Notes under the pieces: generated by a model
What the model was told of the DNA's origin: nothing
The model's input: the letters and a program-made list of their open reading frames with translations, nothing else
The model's database searches: none
Assembly: GCA_008632985.1 (NCBI GenBank)
Contig: QPGO01000236.1
Location: 1 to 64,000 of the forward strand
Direction of reading: 5' to 3'
DNA length: 64,000 nt
Source of the DNA: Psammoneis japonica
Taxonomy: Eukaryota
Shown: positions 1-39,147 of the stretch, piece by piece
Layout of the letters: the number at the start of each line of letters is the position of its first letter
Numbering within the stretch: the stretch's first letter is position 1
Made by a program: the position numbers and the translations under genes

Positions 1-239
1 ACGCCTCACAGCTTATGGCCATGACACATACAAGCATGCCTCATTGTCATCGCGTCGAGCACTCGTATCGAAAATGCCGATAGATCAAAGTTCAGGAAAA
101 GGATGGAATACAAATTCATTTGTGAATTCATTAGTGGCATTGGCGTAATGATATTTACGGCAGAAGCAATCTAAAATCCTTATTCATCATTGACATTTCT
201 GTATTGCTCAGATTTTGAAATCTGACCACTACCGTTAAG

Positions 240-373
240 CATTTAGCTGTCTTTGTATGGAAGTGGAAATGACACTTAACGATTTACACTAACCATTTAG
301 CTTTCTTTGTGTCGAAGTGGAAATGACACTTAACGATTTACACTAACCATTTAGCTTACTTTGGCTCGAAGTC
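240..373. repeat. Tandem repeat, 54-bp unit, ~2.5 copies
   Basis: CATTTAGCT recurs at 240, 294 and 348; GAAGTGGAAATGACACTTAACGATTTACACTAAC is identical in two units. Confidence 0.9.
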
Positions 374-480
374 AGACAAAGAGATTGGGCTATGGGCTTG
401 TCGTTAACCAGCCACGAGCATGAAATCTTTACCAGGCTCACGGCCATGTTGAAAATGCTGTACAGTACGAACTTGAGCCT

Positions 481-1632
481 ATGCCACACACGATGATGAT
501 CGGCAATCACTGCCGTTGCACAAGCAAGACAAGCGCCATGACAATGGCAAGAGCAGTTTTCTTTTCAGTGGTTCTAGTTGCTGTGATTGCTTTTGCTGCA
601 CTAATGGGCGTGACGGTTCCGAGGAGCAAATTACAACACCATGAACTGGTGCAGACAAAGATCATACCTTCGTCGCAACGCCACAAGAATATATCTACGC
701 CATTGATCCAAAACGATCTCGGCACAGAATGTACCTCGCAGTCCTCAAAAAATGAGCAAGCACTGAATACTATACAGATGATATCTATATCAAGAGATAA
801 ATTCTCGCTGTTGCACGTTGGAAAAGCCGGAGGCGGTGCATTTCGAGACCGAACACTTCGTGCATGGCGGATTAAAACCAACGAATGTCATCCGGTTCCT
901 TGTACCAATCGCTTGGTGTCAGATACGGCGGCATTATTTGTCGTTACCATTCGAGATCCAATTGATCGCTTTCTTTCTGCCTTTTATTGGCGAGACCTTG
1001 TCCTGTGCAATCCACACGGCGACAATCGCAAACCGGGTTTTGCAGCAGGTGCTCCCGACAAGCATTGTCAGAATCGTTCTCATGTGCGTGCCGAGCAGGA
1101 AATAATTTTTGACAAGTACAAGAGAAATGCAAACCTCTTGGCAGAAGCCCTTTGCGATTCTACGGTGGACGCCAGGATGGATCTGAAACAAATTGTACAC
1201 GCTCGATTTTCCATAAAGGATTGGTTGGGAATCGACTTGTGGAAAACATCGGCGTCGTCCATCATGCCAATTGTGCTGGAGGAGAATTTTGACTATTACA
1301 GGCAAATTGATCATGCGGTTCGTTGGATCCATGCCCATGCCGAATTCTTGAATGCGTCTGACTTTGCCTTGCGACAAGCCAATGTTGTTCAAATGGATTG
1401 CGAGATGCAGAGGAACAATGCCTCTAGAACATCCCTGTCAAGACTGCATTCATCCGTTACAACCGACAAGTATCGTGCTCCTCTATCACCCATGGGCAAA
1501 AGGTGTCTTGCACAGTACTATCATGAAGATTATGAAATTTTGCAAGACTTGAAGGAACTGGCCTGCAAGACTGACGTTTGTCGATTGGCAATCCAATCCA
1601 TTCTTACGCGTCGAACATCCCTGTTGGCCTGA
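481..1632 (+). CDS. Sulfotransferase-family (Sulfotransfer_2-like) type II membrane protein
   Basis: N-terminal TM (AVFFSVVLVAVIAFAALMGV); 5'-PSB-like LHVGKAGGG; 3'-PB-like IRDPIDRFLSAFYW; C-terminal YYHEDYEIL. True start may be the Met at 538/544. Confidence 0.75.
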   Translation: MPHTMMIGNHCRCTSKTSAMTMARAVFFSVVLVAVIAFAALMGVTVPRSKLQHHELVQTKIIPSSQRHKNISTPLIQNDLGTECTSQSSKNEQALNTIQMISISRDKFSLLHVGKAGGGAFRDRTLRAWRIKTNECHPVPCTNRLVSDTAALFVVTIRDPIDRFLSAFYWRDLVLCNPHGDNRKPGFAAGAPDKHCQNRSHVRAEQEIIFDKYKRNANLLAEALCDSTVDARMDLKQIVHARFSIKDWLGIDLWKTSASSIMPIVLEENFDYYRQIDHAVRWIHAHAEFLNASDFALRQANVVQMDCEMQRNNASRTSLSRLHSSVTTDKYRAPLSPMGKRCLAQYYHEDYEILQDLKELACKTDVCRLAIQSILTRRTSLLA

Positions 1633-2162
1633 CGATTAAAGAAGCTCATGTGCTGTATTTCTTAGCAGTCGCTTAGGATGGTCGTATTGGGAGAGAATTT
1701 TTGTGAATGTGACCGGATGACTCGTACAAGGAGGGCATTCTTCGTGACTGCCATCATTGGCGGACACAACGTTTCTCTCAAGTGGAAGTCACACCATCTC
1801 CACTGTAGCATTGCCGTCCTATAGAAGGGTTTGATTTGCGAGAAGCCACGTCTCCCTTTTGGGACAATGCAGAAGGACAGAGGACAATCAACGCAGGTGC
1901 CACACTTGTCAACTCTTTTTCTGAGCGTACCATTGACAATGACTGTGACATAGAGGGCTCCAGGGCTGCAGAATATAGCTAGTTAGAGCCAGTTATGATA
2001 CCATCGAGGCCTTGCCATTAGCCACAGATAGAGCGACAGCTACTGAGTAGCTAGAGAGTACCGGTAGGCGTACGAAAGAAACGTTCTCATTATGCTGGTT
2101 AGGCTCCCGTCCTAATTTAGCGCCCACCTACCGTATTTCATTCATGAAATTCATTTATCACC

Positions 2163-3159
2163 ATGGCGTCCCTGTTGCCATCTCGTTGCTTGCTCCGAGC
2201 GACTCCTCTAGCCAGTAGACTCTCTCTGACTGACAAAACGAGTGCAATACTCGATAATTTTCGTACGCACATGAACCATGGAAGTGGTGAATTGTTGCAC
2301 GCAGCACCTCCTCAAACAGGTCCACGTGAACCGATCGAGCTTGGGTTGGATGCGGCACGGGCGACGCAAAACATTTTGAGATTGCTCGAGTCGTCGTCAC
2401 AAGGTGGGTACAGAGACACACTTGATACCACATGGCACCCCAAGGGACTTGTTTGGAGAGGAGGAGGAGTCGCGCTGACGCCGTCGCAAGCACAACGACA
2501 ACGCAGTAGCAATCACGTTTCTCCGCCAAACTCGAGTGGCTGGCGTTTGCAGACAATCGAACGGCACTCGCCAAAATTCAAGAAACGAATGGATTCTATA
2601 AGTACATATCTATGCTTCGTCTTGATGATTCTCCAAGCAACAATAGGGTTTTACCAAATGATGGTTGGCAAATTCTCAGGTCATTGGAATCATCGTCTTC
2701 TTCCGAAAACCTAATGAAAAACAACGATTCAATTGTTTCTCTCCATAACACACTGCAAACCTACTTATCGATTGAACATGGTGGTGGAGAAAAAGACAAG
2801 CAACGAGCAGAGGTGCTGTTCGATACAAAAGCATCGCTGCTTACAGCTGGAGCTTCTGATCCAGACGAACCACCCACGGATTGGTCCGCCCCGGTAGGAT
2901 CCTTGTTGGAGATTTCATTGGAATCCTATTTAAAGGGCGTGTCACAACAACGCCTCATTCCAAGGAAAGCAAATTGCATGATGCCATTGTTCAAATTGAC
3001 GTGTTACCATGTCATACCGCGGCATCAGCAACAGTGCATGTGGGCAATGGCACACAATCCAACATCTTTGTGGATCACTTGTTGCTGAGCTGCAAGCATG
3101 ACAACGATGAGTGGACAATTGTTTCCAAAGTCTTTTCACCACAACCTTGGCCGTCATGA
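2163..3159 (+). CDS. Protein with tandem SnoaL/lumazine-binding-like (NTF2 fold) domains, split by about 2 frameshifts
   Basis: Overlapping ORFs 2163-2714, 2612-3088 and 2881-3159 join into one protein ending ASATVHVG...FVDHLLL...WTIVSKVFS, typical of Lumazine_bd_2-like domains. Normal TpA content. Confidence 0.55.
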
Positions 3160-3354
3160 GAGAGAGTTGCGCCCTGGAATTATTGATTCTATTGCTGCGG
3201 TTGTTTTTTGTCGTCCAGCTACTCTCCGTACATGGAGAAGCTAATGAAGAGATTGTGTGGCTTAAATATTCAAACTTCAAACCTGTTTTATATAATGTGA
3301 TATGAATAAAGTCAAGGTAAACTATGAAAAGTTTCAAGATAGGGCCACTAGCGA

Positions 3355-3900
3355 TCAAGCATCCACAAACGAGGTCGCGGTCTTGAGTTTTTCCATGCAC
3401 TTTGCGACATCAGCATCAAAGTTATTGAAATCCCAGTAATGCGCCCACCGATACATCTTGCCTTCTTCGTCGAGTTCAATCGTCTGATAGCCAGCAGCCG
3501 TAACGAGGCAGGATCCCCCGAAAAGTCCAATGAAGTCATTTTGAAAGCTGCATGTTTTGCCCGAAACAAAAATGGGGCCAGCAATGGAACTGCTGTAGCG
3601 AAAACCGTCTGATGGGGTAAATCCGTGCGTCTCCACCCAATTCATAATGTCTTGTGGAGCATAATTGGTCAAGGTACGCTCCTCAACCCCAACAGGGCAG
3701 GCAAAATAGTTTCCAGGCTTGGTGGAATGTAATTTCGCAAAAGCTTCTACATCCTCTAGAGTCGTCCAGCGGCTGGGAGGAAATGCGGTCTCATAGATGC
3801 TTCTGCACTGGGAACGAACCACGTTATCCTCCTCGACGGTCGTGGCGGTTGACAAGACGACAGTGGTGAAGAGCAGGGCAAAAGAAATGAGCTTCGTCAT
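3355..3900 (-). CDS. Secreted protein, probable SnoaL/NTF2-like fold (181 aa)
   Basis: Signal peptide MTKLISFALLFTTVVLSTA from the Met at 3900; C-terminal IELDEEGKMYRWAHYWD resembles the SnoaL-like end motif. Confidence 0.6.
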   Translation of the reverse strand: MTKLISFALLFTTVVLSTATTVEEDNVVRSQCRSIYETAFPPSRWTTLEDVEAFAKLHSTKPGNYFACPVGVEERTLTNYAPQDIMNWVETHGFTPSDGFRYSSSIAGPIFVSGKTCSFQNDFIGLFGGSCLVTAAGYQTIELDEEGKMYRWAHYWDFNNFDADVAKCMEKLKTATSFVDA

Positions 3901-4029
3901 TTTTGAGAGATTAGAGAGTACTTTGTTGGATTGCAGATGGTGGTTTTGTGAGAGGGGCAAGAGTTGCTGTGATGTGATTTGAAACGATCCGTGTGCAGTT
4001 TTTGCCATCTCACTTTTTGGTCGCTGTGC

Positions 4030-5850
4030 ACGATTGAAGGTCGCGGCATAGCGCGCATGCATGCACTCAGCATTGTCACGCCTTGCTTCAAGGAATCAAG
4101 GTGGAGGATGCGAGTCCCGCGAGAGGGAGTCGTGGCGCGACCCCCACTGGGAAATCATCCGTTGTTCCCGCCACCCGCAATCAAACCGTGCTCGTTGAGC
4201 CTGTTGCTCTCTCCCTGTTGTCATTTCAGGTCAGTGGCAGGGTTTGCATTATTTGTGAAAACTGCATGTGACAGGAAACAGTGGCTAAATTGTTGGACTC
4301 AGCAGAGCCCCACCTCTTTGCGCCCCTCAGCTGTCTGCGGCGGCTGTGCACGTGTGTGTTCGTGTGAACAAACCCAGCCAAACTCACCTTTCAGTGGGCA
4401 AAATGAGCCTGGAAACAGCTGAAGAGAAGCCAATGTTGTTGTCACAACCACAAATCTGAGGTTCCAGCCGAAGCAGAGAGTGCCAGAAGAAGAAAAAAAC
4501 TCCTGAGACATTTCTTGACATGCGCCACCTGACACAAGACACAAACCATCTGCAAATGTGAGTGCTGAGAACAGTCTAAAAAGCAGCCAATGTTGTCATC
4601 ACAATTGCTCTTCTGAGGTTGCAACCAAAGCCAAGCCCCTTGACATCTCTTGATGCCACCTCAAACACAAGACAGACCATCCGCCAATGCGGCTCAACTT
4701 TTGAAAACTGCTCAAAACTTCTTCCTTTTGGGAAGCAAAATGCACAAAACCCAAGCTTGCAGCCACAAAGTGACCCTTGGTCTGGGAGGCAAAAAAGGCA
4801 ACATGTCACAGGTGGCTGTGACCTTGAAGTCAGAACCTCTGCCAAAGTCATTGCTCTGGCTCTGGGCGGGACCTTGCGCGACTGCTGGTGGGCTGTGACA
4901 TGAGAGTTTTTCGGATCGCACCGCGTGTTGTGCGTGCACATTTTTGTGTGCTGTGTTCTGCAAAATTGCTTTGTGCTCCCTGTTTTGTGAAGCCAAAGGC
5001 TTTCCATTTTCTTCGTGATTCTTCATGAGAGCAAAAATGGGCCGGTTGTGTTCTTTTGTGTTTGAAGAACATGCCTGGGCAAACTGCAAATGATGTGGCT
5101 CACCCCGGGTTTGTCCTGACATTGCCATGCCATTTGAACAAGATTGTTTGCAGTTTTTTTGTTTTTGAATGCAAAAATTGTTCTCCACATTTGCAACTGA
5201 TCATGCACAAAAATGATGACATCAGCCACTGCGATTGCAGCACGATGATGACAGGAGCAACCATCAATCTTTTTCTCGAAAACACAGTTTGCTGGCATCA
5301 CACTCTCGACTGACGTTGATCATGCAACACATGGCAATTGCAACACCAATGAGAGCATGACACTGACAAACTTTCATCACAGACTCATGGCTTGCTGTTT
5401 TCGCCATGGCGAAGCATGGTCCAACTTTAAAAAATCACGCAAATCACGAGCTGTTCGGCGAAATTTGAGCTAAAAAAGCAGTGGCCAACCCCGTTGGAGT
5501 GTGGAGGAGGAGACATGTTCGCAAAATTTGCCTCTTCTTCTGCTGGTGATCATTCATGTGTTCATTCCTTGACAATTTCACTGCGGAGCTCACGCAGGTC
5601 CATGCCACACGGAGTCCCATGACATGGCGGGGCTGGGGAGTGCAGCTGACTGAAGAGATGGTGTCTCGCAGCCTGTCAATGAATGCCACTTGTCGGCATT
5701 TCCCGGGAAACAGATGAGTGTTTGGATTTGGGGGTGTTTCGAGAAAGGTCAAAACAACACGGCGAAGTGTGGGCCCACAAATGTCCGCCCTCATTTTTGA
5801 TCCATCCTTGCTCAGAAATGAGAATGCTGATCATGTTTGTGTGTCGGTGT
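4030..5850. other. TpA-depleted hypermutated domain, probable transposon relic upstream of the RdRP gene
   Basis: TA dinucleotides nearly absent and TG/CA abundant; 5100-5490 is homologous to the reverse complement of 53196-53578. Confidence 0.75.
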
Positions 5851-5998
5851 AATCGGCTCATAGAGTGCACAGCGCTGTTCCTCTTTAGTTTTGAAATCTT
5901 TTGGTGGCGTAGCGTACCGAGAAAAGTATCTTTGGTGTCAACATACACACAATGAGTGTCACGTTATTCTTTATTTTCTTAAATGATCAGCCTGAACC

Positions 5999-8836
5999 AT
6001 GAAGAAAGGGCAAATTATTTTGGTTAAGGATGAAAAAGGAGCACTGGTGCACCAAGCCACCTTGCTTGAAGATGTCGAGGACGACGACTTGAAAGTTGCC
6101 GGAAACCTGGTGAGGATTCGTTGGTTCATCCGAGGTGACATTGCTCATGTTCGCTCGGAGAACATCGTCCCGTTTGAGGAGAAACTTCCGCCACGGAAAC
6201 GGACTCGTCCCAACCCAGGGAGCTGCTTGAGTCCACAGAAGCGCCCCAAACAACGGATCACTGTACCTGGTGCAAGTGGCGCCGACGGTTTGGCCGCACG
6301 CCCACAAGAGAAAAGTGCAGCAGTGGTCACTCCCACCTCGGCACAAGGAGCAGAGAATGAGCAACTTGTCCCGGGAGGCGATCTCCTGAGTGATGCCGAA
6401 CCGGAAGATGATCCGGAGTTGTTTCCCTCCGAAGACAATCTCCTGGACGATGGCGAGCCAGAAGATGATCCGGAGTTGTTTCCAACTGAAGACAATCTCC
6501 TGGACGATGGCGAGTCAGAAGATGATCCGGAGTTGTTTTCCACTAAAGACGATCTCGAACCGGAAGATGATCTGGAGTTGTTTCCGGACAAACAAGAGGA
6601 AGAAGAAAATGAACAGCAGCGTGGCGACATTGCCAGTGACAACGAATCTACGAGTGAAGCAGGTCAAGCAAATGAATTGAAGAAAGAGTCATTCCCTTCA
6701 GCCCCTCCAAAACATTATAGCACGAAAATTCCAGATGCTGCAGTTCGCAGCGAAGGCGAACTTGTGATCTACGAGGAAAGCACGGACGAGTTCTTTCTTC
6801 GTTGGCTCTTTGGCGGGAAATTGAAGATAATTAAGGTGGGAAACGTCAGCATGAAAAGCCCCCCTCTTGAAAAGCAGCGCAAGGTGGCAGGTGAGGATTG
6901 CACCCTAATCTGCTCCAAGTTGGAAAAAGGAGCATCATCGCACAAGTTTAACGGGAAAGACGACCAGGGAATGTACGTGAAAGCCTACTACGTATCAATG
7001 TCGAAGAACAAGGTTCGCAAGGAAATGGAAAAGATCGCGAATTTCCAGGAGCTATCCCCTACAAAAGTCGCATCCCGATTCGAACTGCTGGTGTCTCCCG
7101 CTGCGCGTTCAAAGGGCAAATTGAAAGTTCCCTACCAGTTTAAAATGGACATTTCTGAGTTTGAAGAAATCCAGGAAAACGGAAATGAAGGAGGTGGTTT
7201 TATTCCCAAAGATATTATCCAAAAGCTTTTCGGAAGAAAAAAGGAGGGTGCATTGATTTGCGCTATACAAGTTCGAGTGGTTGCGCCCGGTCTTGGCATA
7301 TTCAAGGGCACGTTGGTGAGGAAACATGGCATCAAACGAGTGCAACTGCCACTGTCTATGAAGAAGGTCAACGCCTCTCTACTCAAGACGCGTTCGCAGC
7401 GATGGGTGTATGTCGATGTCATCAGAACGTTTCCTTCGACTATCTGCGAACGCATTGAGTGCAGCTTAAATCCGAATCTAAAAGACCCAACAGGAGAACC
7501 CTCGAATGCTCTAAAAGCGCCACCTGTCTCAATACGTAAGATGATGCTGGCCCGGGGAGTCCCTCGTGACATGCTAGAGGACTATTGTTGTAGTTCAACG
7601 AAATCCTGGGATCTGCACAAACATGCTTGGTGCGCTGGCGTTGCAGACCCGACCGGTTCGCTGCCTCATGGCACTATTTTCATCTCGGGACGCGGTGAAG
7701 AATCGGCCCAAGAGCAGATCTTTGTCACACGATCACCAAACACGGAGATTGATGACAGCCTGCTAGTTGAAAGTATTCGATGCAGACCAAACGGAATGAA
7801 AACAGAAGACTGGAAGTTACTCTGCTCTCTCCATTTTGGAATTGTGGTATTTTCTCGCAGCCAGGCAGGCGAGAAATCTCTCCCGGAAAAATTGGGGGTG
7901 GCGACCTTGACGGCGACCAGTACTTCGTATGCTGGGATGAGGATTTAGTTTCCAGCATGACTGCCAGCTCACCATCAGTTGTAGCCAACGATGGGGGTGT
8001 TGACGACATCTTCGGAACCGAGTTCGTGGACTCGGTGGATGAGAAGAAGAAGAGAGGCACAGTGGTGAGAAAAGACGGCGAGAAATATGTTGTGAACTTT
8101 GGTCACGGCGACGAAAGGAATACACTCGCGATGAGATAATGGAGGGCCGTGCTTACCCGGAAAGGATTGAAGCCCCACCGCGTCAAAGGTGGGAAAACAC
8201 AAGTAAAATCCGTTGGCAAGGAGGAGGGGTTGAATGGAGAAATCTATCCGAACTCAAAAAGGAGATCCCGGACATTTTGGCTCGCTATGCTGCCGAAAAT
8301 GATCTCTTGCACACGAACGGCTGGAAGGGGTTCAGCAAGACACTCCCAATGGTGGATTCACCGGGGATTGCCAAGATAATCGGTCACAGGGGGTCGGACA
8401 AGACGCTTGAAGTTGAAATACTGTGGGAAGACGGATCTTCAGAATGGCAAAGGGTCCAGTGCAAAGATGACGACCTGAGAGAAGAAGACCCAGAGGTTCT
8501 AGTAGAGTACGCCAGGGCGAATGATTTGGAGAACAAAAAAGGGTGGAAATGGGTCAAGAGGCACCTTTCGAAACCAAGAATTCGTGGTTTGACAGAGCGC
8601 AGGATGTTGTTGCTAATGTGTCGCGTTTGAAGGAACTTGACATGCTGACGAAAAGGCTCAGCAATGAATACAAAAATATCGAAGACTTTCGGGACCCTGA
8701 CAAGTTGATGTTGGGACGTGCATTTAAGGACTCGCTAGACATTGGAAAGCATGGCGGGAGAGTAAAGCTGCCTGTTCGCTTGCGTGATCGCGTCCCCGCC
8801 TCCCATTGGAAGTACATCTATTTTAGTGACGAGTAA
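5999..8836 (+). CDS. Cellular RNA-dependent RNA polymerase (RNAi RdRP/RDR family) with N-terminal Tudor-like domain and internal Tudor/chromo-like insertions; several 1-bp frameshifts
   Basis: RdRP motifs in order: NEGGGFI, AIQVR...FKGTL, GVADPTGSL, FVTRSP, VVFS, GGDLDGDQYFVCWD (after a slip at the A/G homopolymers near 7890) and LGRAFKDSLDIGKHGG. Further slips at ~8119, ~8175, ~8207 and ~8570, mostly in homopolymers. Confidence 0.85.
6378..6590 (+). repeat. Coding tandem repeat, ~60-bp unit (acidic EPEDDPELFPxEDNLLDDG) within the RdRP N-terminus
   Basis: GAAGATGATCCGGAGTTGTTT three times plus one GAAGATGATCTGGAGTTGTTT variant. Confidence 0.9.
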
Positions 8837-9845
8837 TTGGCACGATCACGGAGCACCCGAATCGAATTCACACACCTCACGAAGAACTCATGGCGGGAGA
8901 TCAGAGGTTAAACTGCATTTTCGTTTTCACAAACATCTACGATTTCATGAGTGTTACATATCCCACTTAAGAATGGCCGGTGAGCTGAACTTTTGATTCG
9001 TCAGTGGGACTGCATTGTGCATTTGAACGACAAGCAACTCTTGACCAAGCATAAACTATTCCCTCTCAAGCGTTGCGGGAGAACAGAATTTCATTTTACG
9101 TTTCAACGATGAGCAACACGTGAGCAAATGTTGCGAACTCCCATTCAATTATTGCGGGAGACCAGGACTTCAGTACCGAAGTGCTCGCCGAATTGCACAT
9201 CTATGTCATCTATCTGAAACATCTAAACATCTTCTATAGTTTATGACAGCTTAAAGCATTACAAAATGTTCCCGCTCTGCTTCACCATGGGGTTCTTAGT
9301 TCTTGTTTCGTTGCCCCAAAACAATCGACATCCTGGATTTCTTTCTCAATGTGTTCGTACTTGCCGCATCAAACAGGTCTTGGGTCGAAATGCTAAATGC
9401 AGAAAGAGTGCCAAAAGAATGTGTCCCTAACAAGAGCATGGGCTGCGTCATCTGCGATAAAGTCTGGACCTGCGGCATCTCAATCTACTTCTGAACCTCA
9501 TCCTTGAACCAAGCGCAATTCTCAATCTCGGTTTCTATCTCCTCGGCAATGTCAGGATAAATCTCCTTGAGTTCCATCTACCAGAATTGGGATGAACAAA
9601 TCGCAGTGAAATGGCCGCGCATGCACTGGTGAAGCTTGAGCTCAAATGTTGCCGATGGCTAAATTCAGCATCAACATGCCAGAAATGGGATGGGCTTGCC
9701 ATGTAATAACCGCACCTGTACTGGTGAAGTTGAGCTCAAATCTCAACGCTTCTTTTTCTTTTGATCAGTCTTTATCTCTTTGGAAAGCAAACTTGGAAAC
9801 TGTGGAAACTGGAACCCGCACGCATGCTGCATCTTTTCGCAAGCC

Positions 9846-10020
9846 ACTCTACTGTGTACTGCCGGTAGCTACTCTCTACTCTAGTAGCTCTCTATTAGCT
9901 ATTAATAGCTATTTCTAGAGAGAGTAGAGGTAGTGCTGTACCTCTACTACTCTACTCTCTCTAGCTCTACTCTCTAGCTAGAGCTAGCTCTAGAGAGTAG
10001 AGTAGAGGGTACAGTACGTA
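9846..10020. repeat. TpA-dense low-complexity palindromic tract upstream of a gene
   Basis: CTACT/AGTAG/CTAG units, perfect palindrome TAGCTATTAATAGCTA (9896-9911), imperfect hairpin 9935-10015. Confidence 0.8.
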
Positions 10021-10157
10021 GGCAGGGCCCAAAAGGGCCCAAAATCTGCGCTGTGTGTGCTCTGCCGCGTGCGTGCGTGGCGACACTGCGAACCGCGACA
10101 TCCCAAACAAAACAAACTTGCCCAAACGCAGAAATAATATTGAAGAAAAAATCGACG

Positions 10158-10854
10158 ATGCTCCAGATGCTCCACTCGTCCGCGTTGACTGTCGGGGCAA
10201 TGGAGCGCATCGGTACTGGCCTGTGCTTTATCCTCTTTCCACTGACTTGGATCTTTTGCTTTTGGGCACACCCCAACCTGCTGCAGCCACGAATTCGCGG
10301 GCTTGAGCCCGAAGAATGGATCCGTCGCAAACATGAGAATGCACTCCTTCGCGTGGGCCACGCCCTCGTGGCACTCAGCACGACGCTCATGATTCCCATT
10401 ACGCTGCATTACATGTATTTACTGGGACATTCATCCAATTCGTTTTTGGGCCTCTTTGGTGCCGCCTTTGCAGTCTTTGGTGTCGTCTTGTTGGCGGCCA
10501 GCAAGGGCGCGGTGTGCTTCACAATGATTGCTCTGGAGGGGTTGGAAGAAGAGGACTTTGAGCAACTGCTGCCGGGCCTCGTGGCTGTTTTTTTCCTTTG
10601 AGGGGTACATGTTTTTAATGTGGGGAATGATTCTCATGGCGTTGGGCGTCTTGGTCCAAGTGTGGGGCATGATGCGCAGCCAGAGTTTACCTCAATGGCA
10701 ACTGAGGCTGCTCTTCGTCAGTGTCTTGTTCATTGGCTTTCCGGATGGGGCGGAAATTATCAATCTAGTGGCGACCTGTCTCATGGCCGTGGCAATGATA
10801 CCATATGGGGTAAATCTGATTCGGGGAGAAAGCAGTCACGTCAAGGTGCATTGA
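10158..10854 (+). CDS. Multi-pass membrane protein of unknown function, one frameshift at a poly-T (~10590)
   Basis: ORFs 10053-10601 and 10528-10854 give about 6-7 hydrophobic helices joined across GTTTTTTTCC; Met at 10158. Confidence 0.65.
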
Positions 10855-11945
10855 AAATGGTCACAGTACTGTGTAATCATTGCTGTTCTCTCTACAACTT
10901 CTCTCTGGTTGACGGCATTCATCAACTATCCATTCCCACGGCATGCAAAGATTTTGTACGTGGAACTTTTATGAGATACGTTCTTGAAACACGTCTTTGA
11001 GGTCAAGGTCATCGGTTGGATCGGAGTCGATCCTATGGCCAAACGCACATACCCGGTAGCGTTCCTCAATTGGCTTTAACTTGAGTCCGTGTGTAATACG
11101 GAACACTGGGTTCGATGACAGTATCGAAAGGATTACACTATTGTACATAGTTTGGAGCAAAACAAGTCCATTTCCACTAAAGCATCAACATCTGTATGAT
11201 CGGTTCCGACGACCGCAAGATTTGCAATCTACTCTGCGATGCTGAAACTTGGTGCTCGGCGTCATGAGATTTACGACACCAAAGGTCTCACTACAACTTT
11301 TAAGGCATCTTGTCGTCGTAGTGAATGATTGACTGAATTTCTGGGAGCCGTGTTTATTCATTGCCTATCGTCTACATGCATGTATGAAGTTCCACGATAT
11401 CTCCCCTTTGCTTCTCGGTGGCCATTCGTGTTGTTTGCCACGCTTGGCGTCTTCGCATCTTTGCGCTTCAGAAAGCGGGCATACTTCGGCTTCTTTTGCC
11501 AAACTGATAAGCTGGTGCTCACGACAACAATATGGACAAAGCTAGTCTTTGCGTGTTTTCGAGTCGGCAACGTTTGATTTCAGCATTTATTCTGTACCTT
11601 CACGTTATACCGATAGAATACTCATAGGTCCAGTTGTTGAAATCAAATTCGCTGATACTTTTGACTTGAGTGAGATGGCGATGCTTTCCCAGCTTATCGA
11701 ATGCCAGGTACAAACAATAGCACGGAAACACTGGCCTCGCATAGATGCATCCGTGGGGCACTCCGGTATGCTGACGAGTGACTCGATGAACCGGCACTTT
11801 GCACAACGGTCTAAAGCTACCTCGTGAGCAGTGAATGAATCAGCTACTCTCTACATGAAATGGTGGGTCCCTCAGAGCTGAAGGTACAAGATATGAGAGC
11901 CTCATTTTGCCTGGTGTTGGAGAGAGGCGGTTACAAATACATTCG

Positions 11946-13002
11946 TCATGAACCAAGACGTTGTGCATAGTACAATTTGTTCTTGTCCTTCCAAACTTGA
12001 TAGTTTTGCATTCCATCAGCTTTGCCTGCAACGACACGCTTGTAGATTACATATTCACTCCATGAGGAATACATGGATGGAATAAAATACTCTGCCCGAA
12101 TCATGACTTCTTGTTCCACAGCTGACATGATTGCAGGAGATAGCTGGCGGACAAAAGCAAAGTCAAACGACTGCAGAAAATTCCGGCCAAGCACGGTCGG
12201 GTCCATCCTGCTTCTGCTGTCATGAGCAATGTAGATCTGGTGGTCATCATCAAGTTTTGGAAACATTCTGTCCACCACATTGGTCCAGTTTAGTCCCTCA
12301 CAACGTCTGAAATGGTATTTCCAGCTTTTGAAATCCTTGACAAAACTAACCTAAAGACCCAATGCTGAACAGTTGCTTGCTGGAACTCTATCTTTTCGAA
12401 TGTGCACGCCAACGTAGGGCCGACCAATTCTTTTCGCCACCAGTTCCACTATTTTTTGAATGTTTAAGTTATAGGAGAAGGAATCTATCAGATGGGAGAA
12501 CACCTCTTGCGATGGATTAAGCCAGGGGAAGGCACGATCGATGTATGCATAGCCCTTGTCATAGGTGATTCTTTTATGTGCTTTCAAAGCCTGTAAGTCT
12601 GAGTAGTTGGCAAAGACGCTTGACAATCTGATGATGTAATCATATCCTTCTGATGTTTTGTTGCTAGGAACATTTCTCACACCAACGTGCTTTTCCAAAC
12701 AAGAATGATTCCACAGGTCTCCATGGCCGGATACCGGTGCTAGCTGGATGGAATGGCTTAAGCTCAAGCGTGTGCCCCGTAAAGTGGGCAACCATCCAGG
12801 CCATCATAGCACCCTGGCGCTGGTTGTTCCAGCCAGAGCTCCGGGTCGTCATGTAATGAACAAAGCCCGTGGCAGGTTCCGACTTTTCTTCAGTCACTTC
12901 GAGTTGCGTTCCTTTCAATTGAGGAGCTTCTTTGCAAGTCCAACCCACCACCAGTAGAGAACACAGCAAAACCGAGATACGGACATTCGACCATTTCATC
13001 AC
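11946..13002 (-). CDS. O-fucosyltransferase-like (O-FucT/POFUT) glycosyltransferase, split across three ORFs
   Basis: N-terminal TM; SGWNNQRQ..MAWMVAHFTGHTLEL, PYVGVHIR, IYIAHD and AVEQEVMIRAEYFIPSMYSSWS are the standard O-FucT motifs. Confidence 0.8.
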
Positions 13003-13229
13003 AGCAACAGAAGCAGAACTGACTGATGCTACTGTATGTCACTGGCTGTATTTTGCGAGAAGAAGCCTCTCGCGCGCTCGAGGGGTAGACGACTCCTCTA
13101 CTCTTACAATCAGCATTAGAGCTTGTCCAAAGAGCGGAAAGTGTCAATCACTGCAATGTACAATGACCATTGGACGACAGACGGACACCCTGAAACGCCC
13201 TCTTGCGTGCATGCTTCTATTCTGACTCA

Positions 13230-15400
13230 GCTTGGCACCAACCAAAGTAAGAAAAAACAAGACCATCTTTTTATCCAGCTCTCTGGGGTGTTTGCAGTTT
13301 GCAGCACTCCAGGGAAACAAATGTCATGCTTGAAATGCAGTGAGCAGGATTTCATCAATGCACAGCATTTTGGAGTCATCAACTGTTGGATGCCAAGCCC
13401 GCCACAGAGCGAGGAGGGCAGCATGAAAAATCAACCTGAGCTGTGTCTCACACAGCTCAAATTGAACAGATTTAAAATGGTCAAGATTGCAGGGCACAAG
13501 TGGAGCATTTTGCTTGCCCACTGAACAAATTTTCAATCTGATTTTTCGACAACACCCTCCCTTGACTTCTTGTGCTCCACTCTCCTGAGTGCCTCATCCA
13601 CTGATGCTTGCGTGTGCCAACGTCATTGCTGACATCTGCCTGTTGTGCCAGGATGTGTGCCAGCCTTGTGCCAGCAATGCTTCATTGAGTTGGTGCAAGC
13701 ATGTCCATTGTCTTTGTTCCGGAATCCTGGGAGAGCACTTGGCTTCATTGCGCAGAGTGCAATGGTGCAATTGTGCCCGAATTCTGCAAGCTGTTGGCTG
13801 TGCATTGCAGAGTGCAATGATGCAATGCTGGCCCTGCGCAGATGTGGGGACATGTGGTCACAGTTCAAATCAAACAGATTTTAAAAAAAATTGATGTTGG
13901 GTGCTGCAAGTGGAGCACTTGCCTGTTGCACAAATCATCAATCTGCTTTTGCTGTGTTTTGCAGAGTGCAATGACACAATGCTGGCCCTGTGCAAATGTG
14001 TGGCCACAGTTCAAATCAAACAGATTTTAAAAAATGACATTGGGGTGGTGCAAGTGGAGTGCTTTGCTGCTTGCCTGTTGCACAAAACATCAACCACATT
14101 TCACAACGCCTGCTCCCTTTTGGTGCGCCTGAGCACTTCATCTGCTGACGCTTTTGAGTGCCATGGTCATCATTGGTGTGTCTGCCTGTTTGTTGTGCCA
14201 GGATGCAGGATGCATGTTGGCCTTGCACCAGCAATGTTTCATTGTGTTGGTGGTGCAAGCATGTTCATCATCTTTGTTCCAGGTGAGCCAAGCAAATGAG
14301 GAGCTTTGCTGCCAAAGACAACTCTTTCACAACTTCAACAATGTTGCTTGCCGGCAGCACCTCCACTGGTGGTGAGCTCAACACTCTCACAGCCACCTCC
14401 AGTGTCAAACATCTCTGACAGCTCTGTGAGAAGGAGAGTCTTGCAGCACACTTTGAGACTGGCCATCGCCCCCGCTTCAGCTGGCCAGTGACATTGAGTG
14501 GGGGGGGGGGGGGGCTCTTGTGAGGTCACCTTCACAGTGTGCTCTCACAATGCTCTTGTGAGGTCACCTTCACAGTGTGCCCTCATCAATTGTTCAATGT
14601 GTGCACTGCAGTTGTTGAGAAAGAGAGCTGCGTGCGTGCATTGCCATGCATGCACAAACAACAAGGCCAGAAGATGTCGTCAGTGCACCAAAGAATGCTG
14701 CTGCTGCAACAAAACCCTGTGATCTGATTTTCATCTGTGTGTGGCACCAGTGGTTTTGCAACACTGTCAGCCACTGTGAAGTCAATGGGAGCTTTCCCAC
14801 TGATGGTGCATGTGAGGTGCAAACTGTGAGGGTTGCTTGTGTCTCATCCTTCATTTGCTTGACACTTGCAAATTTCTTTCTTGGCAGCTTTGTCCATGTG
14901 CACCTCAGTTTGAACATTTTGGAAACAGCCCCACCCAGTTGGCACTCCATGCACATTCTGGAGGGACATTCTCTTTCATCAAAAAACTGGCAAAAATTCA
15001 CTCAATCTCCATCATTTTGTGACATCACCTGCTTCTGCATCTGATCTCTCTCATTTTGCTTTTCTACAAAAATTGGTTTCAACCTTGTCATGATTTTTTG
15101 AGGTCTTTGCAATCCAGCCTGCAGGTGCCTTGAGTTTTCCATCAGTTCCCAGTGCCTTGGCACATTTGAGACACTTCTCATGCATCAGCAACCAAGAGAT
15201 TTTGGAGCAGTCTGCTTTTCTTCAACAAAGGTGTCGTGCAAAAACCAAGGCAAATGCAAACCACTTCTTCTCTTTGACTTGCTCATTTTGAGCTTGTGCT
15301 TTTCAGCCATTGGCTTTTAAAATGGCACTTGTTGTGCTTCTTCAAGATCTGCCTGAACAGCTGCTGTTCACTTTTTGACCCTGAGTGCAAGTCATTGCTG
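13230..15400. other. TpA-depleted degenerate repeat region of unidentified origin
   Basis: Almost no TA; internal duplications (CACAGTTCAAATCAAACAGATTTTAAAAAA at ~13859 and ~14006; GCTCTTGTGAGGTCACCTTCACAGTGTGC twice at 14514-14580); poly-G run near 14500. Confidence 0.65.
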
Positions 15401-15689
15401 GGGAGGAACTTGCTGTGAAGATTGTCAAATCATCATGGCAGTCATTGTGACTCACCGTTGCAATGTGACTTGCACCGTTGGGATCAATGTCACTCAAAGG
15501 ACCTCAACAAAGAGACACAGAGAGCTTCCTCTCCTCACAATCTCAGTTTAGCCACTGCAACACCAGCACCTGGAATCGCCCCATGTCCAATGTTCATCAT
15601 CACACTTTGTCTGTTGACTGTGCTCTGGATGTCTTGACGCACTTCCTCTGCACTGAAGACAAGAGATGTGTCAGATGCTTTGAGTGTGG

Positions 15690-17388
15690 TGTCACCCTCA
15701 TCATCTGATGAGGACATTCCATTTGCTCTGACTCTGGCTCAGGTGACTTAGGGAGCAATTGGCTTTTGTAAGAGTGCTGGACAAAGGCTCTTCCAAACTG
15801 GTTTGGAAGAGCTGCCAAGTGGGGAGATGTTCCACTGCACTCCAGGCAAACTCTTTCAGCTCCTCAATGACATTGAGGACAGGGCCAGCTTGCTTGGATG
15901 AAATGACCTGGTGACTGGAATTTTCATGACACCCAAGGACCCTGATGATCCTGATGCAACGCACTCAAACCTGCTCACCAATTGTGGTGAGGTCAGCTTG
16001 GAACACATCAAGAGACACAAGGAGTCATGCATTGTGAGCTCCTGCAAAGGGGCCCAAGACAGTGCCATTCTCGGACACAACTGTCTCATCAACTTGATCT
16101 CAAAAAAGTGGAAAGGATGAGGTGCTGCACATCCATGACAAGTCCCACAAGATCAGAGACAAGCTTTCTGGTTGTTTGCTTCTCAAGGTCATCATTCAAA
16201 AGTCACGTTTTGATGTGAACACAGCCACAAGCATGACCCACATGAAACTCGTGGAGCTTGACCAACATTTTCTCACAATTGGTCATGACATCATGAAGTT
16301 TGGCTCTTCTGCTTGCGGCATTGAGGTCTCATGGTGAAACCATGGAAGACCTCCTGATGAATCTGTTCAAAGGGAGTTTGGCTGCTTCAGATGAGAGCTT
16401 CGTCAAGTGCACTGGAAACAAGCAAGATGAGCACGAGGGTGGCAAGGACATCAGACATCATGCCAACTCACCTCATGATGCTTGCAGACAAGCATGAGAA
16501 CTCAGTTCAGAAGAAGAAGCAGAACTTGTCCAGCAAAGAAGAGGAAAAGATGCTTGCCTTGTGAGCCAAGGTGAAAGGTGTTGAAAAGCAAGCCAAAAAG
16601 CAGGGCACTGCTGGAAACACCGTGGGGATGATTCCAAGCATGGCAAAGGCAAAGATGGTGACAAGGGGGCTGCGCCAATGTGGGTGAAAGAGAACTTGCA
16701 CCCTGCCAAGGATGTGATCTCCAAACCAAGGCATTGGAATGGTGCACCATGCTGTTGCTGCTGCAAGGACCTTGGAGATGGCCACCATGGCAAGTGGCTC
16801 AAGCACACTCCTGAGAATTGTGCATTTGACCTGGAGTGCAACAAGAAAAGGCCAGCTGAAGACAAGAACAGTGAGGATGGACATCATGCCAAGAAGTTCA
16901 GCCACAAGGGCAACAACAAGAGACACCTTGAGCCAGCCAAGGCATGCAAGGCAGTCATTGATGAAGAGGGGTCAGACAAAAAATCCAAATGACTTCCAGA
17001 GCATGGCCATGGTTGTGACTGCTGTGATTGAGTGCCAGATGGAAGCGCAGCTGGAAACCTTGTGATGCTGTGCTGTGCACTGATCATCGCAGACTGTTCA
17101 GTGGCATGCGCTCATTGCAGTCCATCAGCTGCCATCCTTGTCAACTGCTTGTCATTCTGTTGCAACATCCCAGGGCATCTGCCATTCTGCCCACCCAAGT
17201 GCAAGCGATGGTGCAGGCTGCACTCTGGTTGGCAACATTTGACCAACACATTGCACAAGATTGGAGAACAAATTGCGTGCCCCACCTGGGCCACCAGTGC
17301 CAACACTGGCTCATCCAGAAGAGGGAGAATCCAAAAACTCTGCCAGTCCACAGACGTGCTCAAGAGCCCCAAGCGATCATGAGCCAAC
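15690..17388 (+). mobile_element. Hypermutated Copia-type (diatom-like) retrotransposon gag relic, 5' part
   Basis: Recognisable diatom gag motifs FALT, NLLTNCGEVSLEHI (ancestral YG), AQDSAIL, SGCLLLKVIIQKSRFDVNTAT, HGETMEDLLMNLFKG and a Cys/His knuckle-like WNGAPCCCCC..GKWLKHTPENC; broken by stops and frameshifts. Confidence 0.6.
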
Positions 17389-17858: not shown

Positions 17859-20654
17859 TTACTGGTGATAGGGTACAATCTGCCGTAGATTGTACGTATC
17901 TATCAGCGCTCCGTTCTGGATACGCAACGTGCCGTTGTCATATATACGGACAACTCTGGCGGGTCCTGCATAGCTGTCAGAACCATATTTAGAGGATTGT
18001 TCCTGTTTGATAAGTACCAATTGCCCTACGGTATATTGATACTCCTTGCGTTTCTGATTTTCACGCTTGTTGTTTAAGTGGATAAGCTTCTGCTTTCTGG
18101 TGTCTATGTACTTCCACTTAGCACGATGGACAATAGATAAAACCGCATCGCGTCCGAAGACCAATTGCATGGGACTTGCACGCGTGGTCGTATGTACCGT
18201 AGCTCTAATAGCGAAGGCTACTGCGGAGAGGATGCCACTCCATGGGTCATCTTCGTCCAATTCCATATCCTGTACTGAAAAGGAACGTACCATGTTACCA
18301 AGTGTCTGGTGTACACGTTCCACAATGGCATTCGCCTGTGGATTCCGTTTACTTATGGGTTTCTTCAAAATCCCATAGTCATTTTTAATCATCTGGCTAA
18401 ATTCTGCCATAAATTCTGTCCCACGGTCATAAACCACCTGGGTTGGCCACGGACATCTGCATAGCCACGTTTGTTCCACGACGTTTGCTACGACGTCAGC
18501 GCGTTTCGTAGACACTTCTTCAATCTCGAACCACCCGGTTGCTGGGTCAATCATTGTGACTGCCCTTAATTGCAAAGTGTCCTTTCCGCGTCTTTGAATT
18601 TTATATGGCCCTATCATATCTATGCATAGTGTCTCCCATGGAATTATCTCGGCGACCTTTTCTGGTAGCTTCCCATAACGCTGCGTTCGGCGTTTTGTCT
18701 TCTGGCATCGATCGCACTTAACGCACGTAGAATGCACCGTAGACCTCATACTAGGCCAGTAGAAGTGCTGGGCAATAGATATTTCCGTACGTGTCTCACC
18801 TGGATGACACAGTGTCTCGTGGTACCATTCAGTTAGCGGAACCTGCAATGACTGTGGTACTGCGATTTTGTCCTTATGACAGATTAACTGTCGTGATGAC
18901 CCTCCCCCACGATACGCGCGAATGGAGTAGTCGGACGAGTCCTTAGCTCGTGAAAGTAGGCGCTTGTCCTTTTGTTGTGCTTTTTGAATGCGCTTGAAGC
19001 TAACAGGCAGAGATGCATCGTCTTGCGCGTCTGCATTAAAGGCTTCATGCAAAGGACGACTCGATGGAGTGTCTTTTACATCTGGATTGGCCTCGGAAGG
19101 CAAGCTGGGTGCCAGCCGAAGGCGACCAAGAGCGTCAGCGACTGGGTCATGGGTGCCCTTGACACAGCGTAATTCGGGACCGCATTCTTCGCACACCAAC
19201 CGCCAGCACACAACGCGCTCGGCATTGAACACTTTGTACGTAAGATTTTTATGATCAGCACACACAATCACACGATGACCAAGGAGAGTCGTTCGAAATT
19301 CTTTCAACGTCTCCACAATGGCGAGCAATTCTCTCTCTGTTGTTGTGCAATTTAATTGCGCACTGTTGAGCTTTCTGCTGTAAAAGGCGACAGGTTTATT
19401 ATCTTGGGACATGACTGCTCCCAATTGATGTTTAGAGGCATCGGTGTGTGTCTCAAAGGGTTTGTTGAAATCAGGATGTGACAACAAAACATCATCCGAT
19501 GTCACCCGTTCAACGGTTTCAAACGCCTCGTCTTCAACGGACGTCCACTCCCACTTGACAGTCTCGCTTACGAGTCGTGTTGGCGGAGCCAAGACTTCAG
19601 AATGTCTAATCCACGTGTCACGGCAGTGGTTCACCACACCAACAAATGAGCGCAGGTCGCGTTTGTTGGCTGGGGTCGCGATTCGCTTGATGGCGTCGAC
19701 TTTGTCAGGCATTGGTCGCACCCCGTCTCTGTTGACCAGACAACCCAAGTGTTCTAATTGGGTTTGACAGAAGTGAGATTTAGTTGCGTTAACTTTTAGT
19801 CCTGCTTTCTGGACCCTCAACAAAACTTCTTCAAGTTTGTTGAGGTGATCTTCACAGGTGCCTTTCGTCATGACGAGAAGGTCATCTAAGTGCGTTCGAA
19901 CAAACAACAGATCTTCAAACAAGCCTGACATGCGTTCTTGGAAAATGTCTGGCGAGCTGCATGACCCCATGGGCAATGCCTGCATCTCATGCTTGCCCCA
20001 TGGGAAGATGAGCGTGCAGAGCTTCTTGCTGTCAGCATCCAATCGGATGTGACAATGGCCCGTGTTTAAATCCAGCGATGCAGCCCACACAAAGCCTTCG
20101 AGCTTGAGTGGCACATCTTGGATGTGAGGAATCGGATGAGGCAATCGCTTGATCCATTTGTTCAGCTCTCTGAAATCATCAACAAAGTGCACCGTTGAAT
20201 CTTTCTTCGGCATGACAAATGATGGAGCTGCCCACCGGGATCGGTTGATGCGTTTGAGAACACCGACACGCACTGGGCATTCTACTTCTTTATGCAGCGT
20301 AGCTTCGCACGCACAAGGTGCTTCATGCGGACGAGCGTGGCATGGTTCTGCACCCTCCTTGAGTTGGACATGGCAGGGTTCTCCCTTCCATTCTCCCAAT
20401 GTCCCATCAAATGAGGACTCATGGCGTTTCAACAGTGCCAAAAGGTCATTTTGTTGAACTGTGGAAAGTCCCATTGCCCCTTGCGTTGTGTCCTCGAGGC
20501 AGGCCGGCGCGCACTTGGCATCCAAAATGCGTGAAATCCGGTCGGTTTCCGAAGACAAGGCTTCTGGATCTTGAAGATAGAAGGAGGTTTCTGCCGCAGC
20601 ATCTACGTGCCTCATTGGCACTTCTCCATTGACCAATGGCCACTCCATCATCTG
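17859..20654 (-). pseudogene. pol: Gypsy pol (RT-RNase H-integrase); RT and RNase H inactivated by Tyr to His/Cys changes
   Basis: DFRELNK, LDLNTGHCHI, LPMG, RTHLDD (YxDD changed to HLDD), TDAS, ERELLA, DHKNL; integrase HxxxxHPG..CxxC, IDMIGP, DRGTEF, NPQANAIVER, GPA motif. Confidence 0.95.
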
Positions 20655-21101
20655 TGCAGCATGCATGCAGACAAAAGGTCATTTTTGTCACGCCCTTTGT
20701 GACATTTAAAGGCTGCAACACGTCGCCGTGATGCATTGACTCTCATCAGTGGCTGTGTGTTGCACTCCTCCCCATGTGTCACGCATCCATGCGGCTCTTT
20801 ACTGACGTGTGCTGACACTGCACGGTTTTGGCGGAACAGTGTGGGTATGTGCGAAGGAACACACAGAACTGCACAGAGTTTTGCGCGTTCAACAGTGATC
20901 AACGTTGCTGCAGACAACTCCCACTCAGGGTTTCGAACCCCTGGCCTCCTGCCCAATGGTTGCGATGTGCCACTCCGCTGTGAATTCATGGTGCAGCATG
21001 CATGCAGACAAAAGGTTATTTTTGTCATGCCCTTTGTGACATTTAAAGACTGTGGCACATCGCCGTGACACATTAACTCTTGTCAGCAGCTGCACATTGC
21101 A
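20655..21101 (-). mobile_element. TRIM (447 bp, 110-bp terminal direct repeats) inserted in Gypsy pol
   Basis: TDRs 20655-20764 and 20992-21101, TSD TCTG, PPT GGGGAGGAG; removing it and one TSD rejoins FSEQ-MMEW in frame. Confidence 0.92.
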
Positions 21102-38400: not shown

Positions 38401-39147
38401 TGTCTTTTAGGATGTGCTCAATCGTGCATTGAGCAGACGGTCCAGGCATCAACAAAGCAATGTTTGTGTTGCATGTCAGTTTTGATCTGCTCATTGCAGG
38501 GCACGACACGTTTTGAAAAGCATCGCACTTTCTCCTCTTCGGAACAACTTCCTTCACGCACCGACACGCAAAAGTCCCATCCCAGCTGAACCACTTTATC
38601 TGAGTGTCATCTGCGTTCCTCACCAAATCATTTGGACACGAAGCAGCTGGTTGCCTGTGACGGCAGTCACCCAGTTTGAGCTCCTCTCGTTTCCTTTTCC
38701 TTGACAGCGCGTCCAGTTCCTCGTGTGGGGTTTTTTTGCGCATTTTACGCAACTCTGCGCATTTGGGAAAACACGACTTCGTAACGTGCATGTGATGGTT
38801 GTAAGCTGCGTCCGGTGCACATGCCTCCATTGTCCCTTGCGGACCACTTCGCTGGCATTGCACACACATTGCTTTTAGTCGCTTTGCATGGTTGTCTGGA
38901 TAGCGAGTCAGGCCAGGTGCACAGTGCCGTGACTGTAAAAAGCTTTCTACAAACTCGACGTTTGTCCAGCACTTGGTGCAGTGACGACAATGAGCAAACA
39001 TTCCGTTCTTCGACTGCTGGCCGTCTTTGTGCCTCAGGTTTCTCAGCTGTTGGTCGTCTGCTGCTTTTGGAGAGGTGCGACACATTTTTGGCACTGTGCA
39101 GTCATGATCGAATGCTTCACGCAACGCACCAGTGCTGAAGTCCTCGC
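35411..39147 (-). pseudogene. Duplicated C-terminal part of Helitron RepHel (Rep motif 3 plus PIF1 helicase)
   Basis: Walker A HGAGGSGKS, LLVVDEISF, FAGDLRQLEPV, HRFKDD, QLPF..NNATAGHKLQG, WVYVVLSR. Confidence 0.92.

Follow-up and report, generated by a model that had tools for sequence, protein, structure and literature searches.

We describe here a gene for a eukaryotic RNA-dependent RNA polymerase (RdRP) with a small predicted β-barrel and two chromodomain-like units within the polymerase body. The gene lies on the + strand of a 64,000-nucleotide (nt) stretch of DNA from Psammoneis japonica (GenBank assembly GCA_008632985.1, contig QPGO01000236.1, positions 1 to 64,000), which we refer to as the window. 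The overall explanation that we consider best, with a probability of roughly 55%, is that of an intact RdRP with an inserted docking module of the royal family. We are far more confident that this is an intact, single-exon gene for a two-barrel RdRP, that it belongs to a compact clade of a diatom-like lineage without a neck-3 helix and head domain, and that its appearance as four separate frames is an artefact of insertions and deletions (indels) in the assembly. The compact family to which it belongs has gained a divergent chromo pair inside the enzyme, Chromo, Tudor, PHD or KOW domains ahead of it, and GW repeats in the sister proteins of the window gene. The layout of the window gene, with barrel and chromo-like units inside the enzyme, could directly couple the synthesis of silencing RNA with chromatin or with a partner protein.

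As assembled, the gene is spread over four overlapping open frames on the + strand (5996-7948, 7771-8139, 8043-8630 and 8525-8836). Its relatives are colinear with the window protein over all four frames, and their alignment implies five changes of frame, each at a short homopolymer run. We compared the locus with contigs from two public sequencing runs, X1 and X2 (locus shares 0.91 and 0.86). Within the gene, the indels that separate these contigs from the window are exactly the five frame breaks, each at full depth in both runs, in a comparison made at the level of contigs, which conceals rare variants. Correction with reads, which had been proposed when the gene was first predicted, succeeded at all five sites (Table 1) and restored a single open reading frame (ORF) of 945 codons, with no in-frame stop ahead of the TAA at 8834-8836, the catalytic motif DLDGD at residue 635 and the late motif KHGG at residue 917. 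The four-frame appearance is therefore due to five homopolymer-type assembly indels. The original prediction had allowed that the frameshifts might be real; all five are absent from the read-derived contigs of both runs. It had also quoted a first chromo-like repeat that begins with IEAHR, a reading that requires two more frame changes, at 8173 and 8203, and both were confirmed by the reads. The corrected protein keeps 38 of the 39 residues that are near-invariant in the family (positions at least 90% conserved in an 81-row alignment), the sole change being Cys to Gly.

The long X1 contig spans 5974-9051; positions 5900-5973 are uncovered in X1, while X2 continues. A sixth indel, a C inserted after 8961 in the contigs, lies outside the gene. 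Together with five of the six single-letter differences between X2 and the window, the six indels (7894-8961) crowd the 3′ 1.2 kb of the locus (7781-9053), and there are none in 5974-7893. Diverged haplotypes may have disturbed polishing in this part. Frame breaks in conserved genes of this assembly can be consensus errors, and reads should be checked before such a gene is declared dead.

The identity of the product as an RdRP, as proposed at the outset, is borne out by the presence of DLDGD and by the Pfam RdRP family (PF05183), which scores 40.7 bits on the frame 5996-7948 and 47.0 bits on the frame 7771-8139 (cut-off 23.8). For its structure we used an AlphaFold2 model of a relative, P0003, made with the 81-row alignment, whose core is about 42-43% identical to that of the window protein. 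The model has a mean predicted local distance difference test (pLDDT) score of 75.6 and a predicted template modelling (pTM) score of 0.72, with residues 260-980 mostly above 90. Its catalytic aspartates (D654, D656 and D658 in P0003 model numbering) are nearly invariant across the family. Structure alignment (VIA) gave a Z of 22.1 with maize RDR2 (root-mean-square deviation (rmsd) 3.4, 395 residues aligned) and of 19.5 with QDE-1, and a Foldseek search of the PDB returned QDE-1 (6e-14) and RDR2 (1.6e-10), as well as phage two-barrel polymerases. What the window protein shares with Neurospora QDE-1, plant RDR2 and RDR6, and S. pombe Rdp1 is the core of two double-psi barrels with DLDGD and a PF05183 score above cut-off.

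The differences from these enzymes lie outside the core. The N-terminal RRM/PH-type domains of RDR2 are absent from the window protein, which in turn carries, past the catalytic loop, a module of about 190 residues that RDR2 and QDE-1 do not have. The domain order of RDR2, as set out in PMC8713982, includes a bridge helix, neck helix 3 and head. Neither the neck-3 helix nor the C-terminal head of QDE-1 and RDR2 is present in the P0003 model or in the tails of its relatives, so that the whole window family differs from the two enzymes in this respect; a head domain is typical of solved RdRPs and is not a criterion of the Pfam family. By VIA, residues 255..960 of the model align with 389..937 of the 1133 residues of Arabidopsis RDR2, and residues 259..980 with 515..1140 of the 1402 residues of QDE-1. 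The model ends near RDR2 residue 937. The early end of the protein, which the original prediction had remarked on, is a trait of the family rather than a truncation: relatives stop about 25-35 residues past KHGG.

Table 1. Features of the RdRP gene and its upstream flank, in window coordinates.
Feature	Position	Strand	Basis
RdRP coding sequence	5999..8836	+	single ORF after five indel corrections; intron not required
N-terminal β-rich domain, ~64 residues	5999..6190	+	common to P0003 (phmmer E 2.3e-5), P0021 and P0007
Basic PPRKRTR patch right behind the N-terminal domain	6188..6208	+	sequence; KRKR equivalents in P0003, P0021 and P0007
Tandem 57-nt repeats, about four acidic E(P/S)EDDPELF units	6381..6585	+	repeat analysis
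Polymerase core with slab and two barrel domains, extending slightly beyond the catalytic loop	6737..7960	+	PF05183; 38-43% identity to relatives
Catalytic Asp triad DLDGD	7903..7917	+	sequence
SH3/Tudor-like β-barrel, first part of the insert	8002..8141	+	family hidden Markov model (HMM), E 6e-11; in the model four strands and a short helix, pLDDT >90
Chromodomain-like unit 1	8151..8333	+	repeat match, family HMM; model equivalent 750-808
Chromodomain-like unit 2	8352..8552	+	repeat match, family HMM, profile and Foldseek
C-terminal helices with KHGG (8747-8758), protein end	8573..8833	+	model; no neck-3 helix or head domain
Assembly indel 1	7894..7895	+	two surplus G in a G run; omitted in X1 (depth 392.6/392.6) and X2 (54.1/54.1) contigs
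Assembly indel 2	8113..8114	+	one A lacking; supplied by X1 and X2 contigs
Assembly indel 3	8173..8173	+	one surplus C in a C run; omitted in X1 and X2 contigs
Assembly indel 4	8203..8204	+	one T lacking; supplied by X1 and X2 contigs
Assembly indel 5	8570..8571	+	one A lacking; supplied by X1 and X2 contigs
TA-poor, hypermutated-looking block	4000..5750		6 TA in 1750 nt against ~110 expected; TG and CA observed/expected 1.4-1.8

The insert follows DLDGD and consists of the small predicted β-barrel and then two homologous chromodomain-like units. A barrel-like segment, two chromo-like repeats and a late RdRP-like motif had been predicted in this order, and all of the quoted segments, KHGG included, were located where they had been placed. 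The two units match each other by BLASTP (E 3e-9, 17 of 45 residues identical), and their family profiles do so by hhalign with a probability of 99.2% (E 2.2e-19). For the barrel, Foldseek found the Tudor tandems of SETDB1 and 53BP1 (E 1.5e-3 to 1.6e-2), in long alignments that also span the chromo units, and subthreshold matches to Tudor_3/DUF7141 occur in relatives P0005 and P0011. Behind DLDGD (654-658), the P0003 model has a strand and a helix, then a low-confidence linker (681-710), the module (711-870) and the helices that carry KHGG (876-947). The prediction of an insertion inside the polymerase core can accordingly be refined: the module does lie within the polymerase body, and to judge from the model it would occupy a loop that joins the catalytic Asp loop to the C-terminal helices, whose counterpart in RDR2 is the bridge-helix/trigger-loop region. 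The loop beyond the catalytic barrel of a two-barrel polymerase can evidently accommodate a folded insert of 190 residues.

Both units belong to the chromodomain class of folds. A three-stranded sheet with a C-terminal helix is present in each of them in the P0003 model (unit 1: strands 757-764, 771-776 and 781-785, helix 786-803; unit 2: strands 824-833, 836-843 and 850-853, helix 859-868), in which pLDDT over the insert is 87-97; a single-sequence AlphaFold model of the frame 8043-8630 was poor (pLDDT 43.5) and was not used. We built a profile of the tandem region from the window piece and 14 relatives and searched it against PDB sequences. It reached the chromodomains of cpSRP43 at E 3.3e-5 (5e4w), 2.4e-4 (3ui2) and 0.005 (1x3q), with weaker rows for the chromodomains of CBX1, MPP8 and Rhino (E 0.4-0.6); at least 8 of the 11 rows named chromodomain proteins, and two Cry8 rows (E 0.09 and 0.32) were taken as chance. 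A whole-protein profile of the insert-bearing relatives gave weak chromodomain rows against the PDB (E 0.18-0.61). Among the Foldseek matches of the model, the first that is not a polymerase is 5e4w_C, chromodomains 2-3 of cpSRP43 (E 4e-4, 116 columns, 25% identity). With model residues 750-808, VIA found chromo shadow domains, namely those of CBX3, Rhino, HP1a and CBX1 (Z 7.3-7.7, rmsd 2.1-4.0, with 51-55 of 54-61 residues covered); these Z values are in a range (Z 7-8) that can reflect common arrangements and that we weighed only jointly with the sequence-profile result.

The tandem of minimal chromodomains in cpSRP43 (5e4w, 3ui2 and 1x3q) is the sole solved family that the tandem profile reaches at significant E. 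In contrast to cpSRP43, which is a chloroplast targeting factor and binds the tails of Alb3 and cpSRP54, the tandem of the window is an insert in a polymerase and carries HR(G) and GWxW motifs. In both units, strand 1 is followed by HR(G), the His of which is near-invariant, and the helix by GWxW; canonical chromodomains do not typically have either motif.

With the 650-residue frame as the query, exhaustive searching by HMMER yielded 510 proteins at E<=1e-3, of which 151 are at E<=1e-30. The best 150 of the 510 were listed and carry the P-numbers used here, and all counts out of 150 refer to them. They share 29-43% identity with the query, come from metagenome, Logan or MMETSP sources, and are unnamed or "hypothetical" in their annotation, save for one labelled RdRP. 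A word-indexed homologue search with the chromo frame 8043-8630 gave no matches at near or longer lengths. Among the listed relatives, the distance from DxDGD to [KR]HGG is bimodal (about 95-125 or about 240-315 residues). The closest of them (P0002-P0011 and others) are intact proteins with their parts in the same order as in the window protein, and in P0001, of the same clade, about 45 low-complexity residues take the place of the insert. By HMMs of the individual parts, 30 of the 150 representatives have chromo-like units. The alignment used to build the HMMs had already contained 27 of these, the new ones being P0012, P0031 and P0099; 22 of the 30 have the full barrel and two units after DxDGD. 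Tail length proved too coarse as a proxy for the insert, since P0101, P0026 and P0118 are long-tailed and have no chromo units.

To place the insert on a tree, we used 122 rows of the core only and removed the columns of the insert; to enter the tree, a listed relative had to have the motif, 330 residues ahead of it and 115 behind it, which left out 29. The window protein falls in a group of 24 rows (Shimodaira-Hasegawa-like approximate likelihood-ratio test 97), and the module is present in all of these but P0001 and P0083. Elsewhere, a single unit is found at the equivalent place in P0059 and P0149, which fall in the tree's other half, and P0021 and P0031 have one unit ahead of the core. Compared with ten relatives, the window protein is 38-43% identical over the core, 20-35% over the insert and 29-41% over the tail. 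Judging from this distribution, the insert is an ancestral and conserved part of the protein clade. The original prediction had conceded that 8000-8570 might derive from an unrelated retroelement fragment, an idea that conservation of the segment across a clade of intact proteins overturns. The cluster of P0006 includes an MMETSP transcript, and the architecture is therefore transcribed in at least one organism.

We scanned the 150 representatives against Pfam, with the threshold set at E<=0.1 for 26 of them, at E<=0.01 for 20 and at E<=1e-4 for 104, and found the RdRP family in 145. Some of the 150 also have accessory domains above cut-off. Canonical Chromo domains occur in three (P0079, 54.7 bits; P0107, 49.7 bits, together with Mtf2_C; P0066, 41.2 bits), PTM/DIR17 Tudor domains in another three (P0146, P0150 and P0092), and a PHD domain in P0109, where it is accompanied by a weak CXXC. 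KOW domains are present in 17 of the 150, several with Spt5-type models, and P0112 has four Spt5-type KOW. SH3_KIN17_C was found in one protein and repeated HA domains in two (P0063 and P0029). All of these domains (Chromo, Tudor, PHD, KOW, SH3_KIN17_C and HA) always stand ahead of the core; P0101 has a C-terminal RNase H1-type hybrid-binding domain and an RNase H. The compact RdRP family would seem to have acquired SH3-fold reader or KOW modules repeatedly, and this is the main comparative argument for what may be a role coupled to chromatin or transcription.

A Tudor-like barrel had been predicted at the N-terminus of the window protein: a domain of about 65 residues does exist there, but the Tudor-like fold was not confirmed, as pLDDT in the model is about 29 and no Pfam match was found. 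By hhalign, the probability of a match between this domain and the barrel or chromo units is below 2%. The basic patch behind it looks like a nuclear-localisation signal. The tandem acidic repeats that follow (Table 1) have counterparts, as similar acidic LF repeats, in P0001, P0005, P0009, P0012 and P0018. For a comparison of N-termini we took the relatives with at least 100 residues before the core, 17 of them chromo-bearing and 88 others. Eight of the 17 have GW/WG repeats (at least 4) and four have acidic LF repeats (at least 3), as against none and one (P0001), respectively, of the 88. The eight include all five sister proteins of the window gene, which have 8-10 GW/WG motifs each. GW repeats serve as Argonaute-binding platforms. 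The GW and the acidic DDPELF-type repeats never co-occur among the 17 chromo-bearing relatives with a long N-terminus, and the window protein has the DDPELF type in place of the GW repeats of its sisters.

Taken together with the fold of the insert, these features suggest how the enzyme could work. The polymerase would copy transcripts into double-stranded RNA (dsRNA) for the production of small RNAs; the inserted module would dock it on chromatin, by way of a histone tail or a chromatin protein; and the copying would thus occur beside the transcribed repeat locus. We rank docking on chromatin first because of the domain fusions found across the family and the GW repeats. Tethering to chromatin is plausible, though unproven, and for the specific proposal that the inserted module holds the polymerase on chromatin while dsRNA is made, we would put the chances a little short of even. 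The ligand of the module, a nuclear location of the enzyme, RNA as its template and its link to repeats are all features that we infer.

The closest parallels are found in fission yeast and plants. In fission yeast, the chromodomain of Chp1 and the GW motifs of Tas3 are part of the RNA-induced transcriptional silencing (RITS) complex, together with Ago1, and Rdp1 is in the RNA-directed RNA polymerase complex (RDRC), so that these are separate proteins. What the window gene has in common with RITS/RDRC is a chromo-type module and, in its sister proteins, GW repeats, together with an RdRP. It differs in that module and polymerase are in one chain, its units are not canonical readers of histone H3 lysine 9 methylation, and it has acidic instead of GW repeats. 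In plants, SPT5L/KTF1 and NRPE1, which are factors of RNA-directed DNA methylation (RdDM), carry KOW domains and AGO-hook GW repeats. The compact RdRP family likewise combines KOW or chromo-type modules with GW repeats, whereas in plant RdDM these modules are on elongation-factor or polymerase subunits and not on an RdRP. A bolder version would make of the family a one-chain loop of chromatin-coupled RNA interference (RNAi), in which a nuclear RdRP reads a mark through its barrel and chromo pair, sister proteins recruit Argonaute through GW repeats, and amplification takes place on the marked repeat. We regard this version as doubtful. If it were true, such a loop could feed the marking or mutating of repeats in this genome, given the TA-poor blocks that adjoin the gene and fill the window.

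A number of observations weigh against an intact polymerase with a chromatin-docking module. X1 and X2 come from the same sample and are possibly the assembly's own data, and of the five coding differences among the six single-letter differences of X2 contigs from the window, four are nonsynonymous. The structural model is that of P0003 and not of the window's own protein. Pfam Chromo (PF00385) gave no match to the units of the window in a scan taken up to E 10, and among 26 close relatives it is found below its cut-off of 25.1 in P0045 (19.6 bits) and P0002 (14.9 bits). As read by eye from the alignment to cpSRP43, the central position of the aromatic cage, a Trp behind strand 2, holds an aromatic residue in 15 of 15 sequences, but positions one and three are non-aromatic in the window protein and most relatives. 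The significant solved relatives, the cpSRP43 chromodomains, were solved, according to their entry titles, with tails of Alb3 and cpSRP54 and not with histones. In the structure comparison, the best rows belong to chromo shadow domains, a kind of module for dimerisation and partner docking. Finally, the N-terminal region of the window protein itself has no GW/WG repeats.

Several of these points lead directly to the strongest alternative, in which the module is a protein-protein device. It would either dock a partner peptide, as chromodomains 2-3 (CD2-3) of cpSRP43 do, or mediate dimerisation or closure of the cleft in place of the missing head. The sole significant sequence matches are those to cpSRP43 chromodomains, and the top non-polymerase Foldseek row is CD2-3 with the Alb3 tail; VIA matched unit 1 best with chromo shadow domains, the aromatic cage appears incomplete in the alignment, and the family is without a head domain. 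In the QDE-1 dimer, head domains contribute 1,720 of 2,215 Å2 of the contact, according to PMC1750930. However, other members of the family carry canonical readers (Chromo, Tudor and PHD), which points back to a chromatin theme, and the relatives that have no insert are equally headless, so that the insert is not needed as a substitute for the head. We hold this alternative to be distinctly less probable than docking on chromatin, though it is the most serious of those that we considered.

A second alternative is that the module binds nucleic acid, so as to keep the RNA template or the double-stranded product close to the active-site entry or exit. Such binding is a property of some chromo, Tudor and KOW barrels; KOW domains occur in the 17 relatives mentioned above, and P0101 combines its hybrid-binding domain with RNase H. 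The position of the insert, as inferred, would also be suitable: PMC8713982 describes the corresponding loop in RDR2 as crossing a potential secondary channel toward the bridge helix. Yet the module's matches, whether by sequence or by fold, include no family that binds nucleic acid, and we consider this role unlikely.

The enzyme could also make RNA chiefly from DNA templates, in the manner of the compact two-barrel polymerases of phages or of QDE-1 in its DNA mode, a proposal that is compatible with any of the docking readings. Its compact, headless build resembles that of gp64 and gp62, two RNA polymerases of phages (Z 16.7 and 16.4), its Atlas neighbours include phage clusters, and QDE-1 has both RNA- and DNA-templated activities (PMC9508822). 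Nevertheless, eukaryotic RdRPs score above the phage enzymes in structure alignment, and the Pfam RdRP family is found in nearly all of the 150 representatives. Preference for an RNA or a DNA template cannot be read from sequence, and we think a mainly DNA-templated enzyme improbable.

Least probable by a wide measure is a decayed pseudogene, or an RdRP gene broken by a chromodomain-bearing retroelement fragment, which five frame breaks within 700 nt as assembled and a transposon-rich window might suggest, and which we rejected because the breaks are absent at full depth, the read-corrected ORF has no in-frame stop, the insert is colinear with intact relatives, no flanking long terminal repeat (LTR) or inverted repeat was found in 1-16000, and a six-frame translation of the window contains no further units of the chromo-like type.

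A search of the full-text literature, with subscription journals and domain databases outside its range, turned up no account of an RdRP that has a chromodomain within it or fused to it. A term search of a chromo-superfamily survey (PMC5906684) gave no mention of such an architecture, and the diatom papers PMC2724275 and PMC3145265, in the excerpts available, list RdRP genes without domain analysis. The coupling of RNA silencing to chromatin is poorly known outside fungi, plants and animals, and the present family supplies concrete candidates for the step that joins RNAi to chromatin in transformable algae.

The gene had been described as unmutated yet adjacent to hypermutated DNA, and the composition of the locus agrees with this. 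Observed/expected ratios within the gene are 0.39 for TA, 0.94 for CG and 0.98 for CA, next to a block with a near-absence of TA (Table 1) that stops about 250 nt ahead of the start codon, which puts DNA of hypermutated appearance right beside the likely promoter region. Much of the transposon-rich window is TA-poor with an excess of TG and CA. A Ty3/gypsy pol gene at 17859-20678 on the - strand has an open frame of 939 residues with reverse transcriptase, RNase H and integrase. Unlike most repeats in the window it is not depleted in TA (observed/expected 0.92 at 18001-19000), and it may be a young or protected copy. Two Helitron-like gene sets on the - strand (35411-39217 and 40239-45898), with PIF1 helicase, Helitron_like_N and DUF6570, lie in TA-poor DNA (TA observed/expected 0.12-0.27) and yet have open frames of 1268 and 1384 residues. 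Near the start of the window, at 424-1632 on the + strand, an open frame of 402 residues gives a borderline match to the sulfotransferase family PF03567 (22.1 bits against a cut-off of 22).

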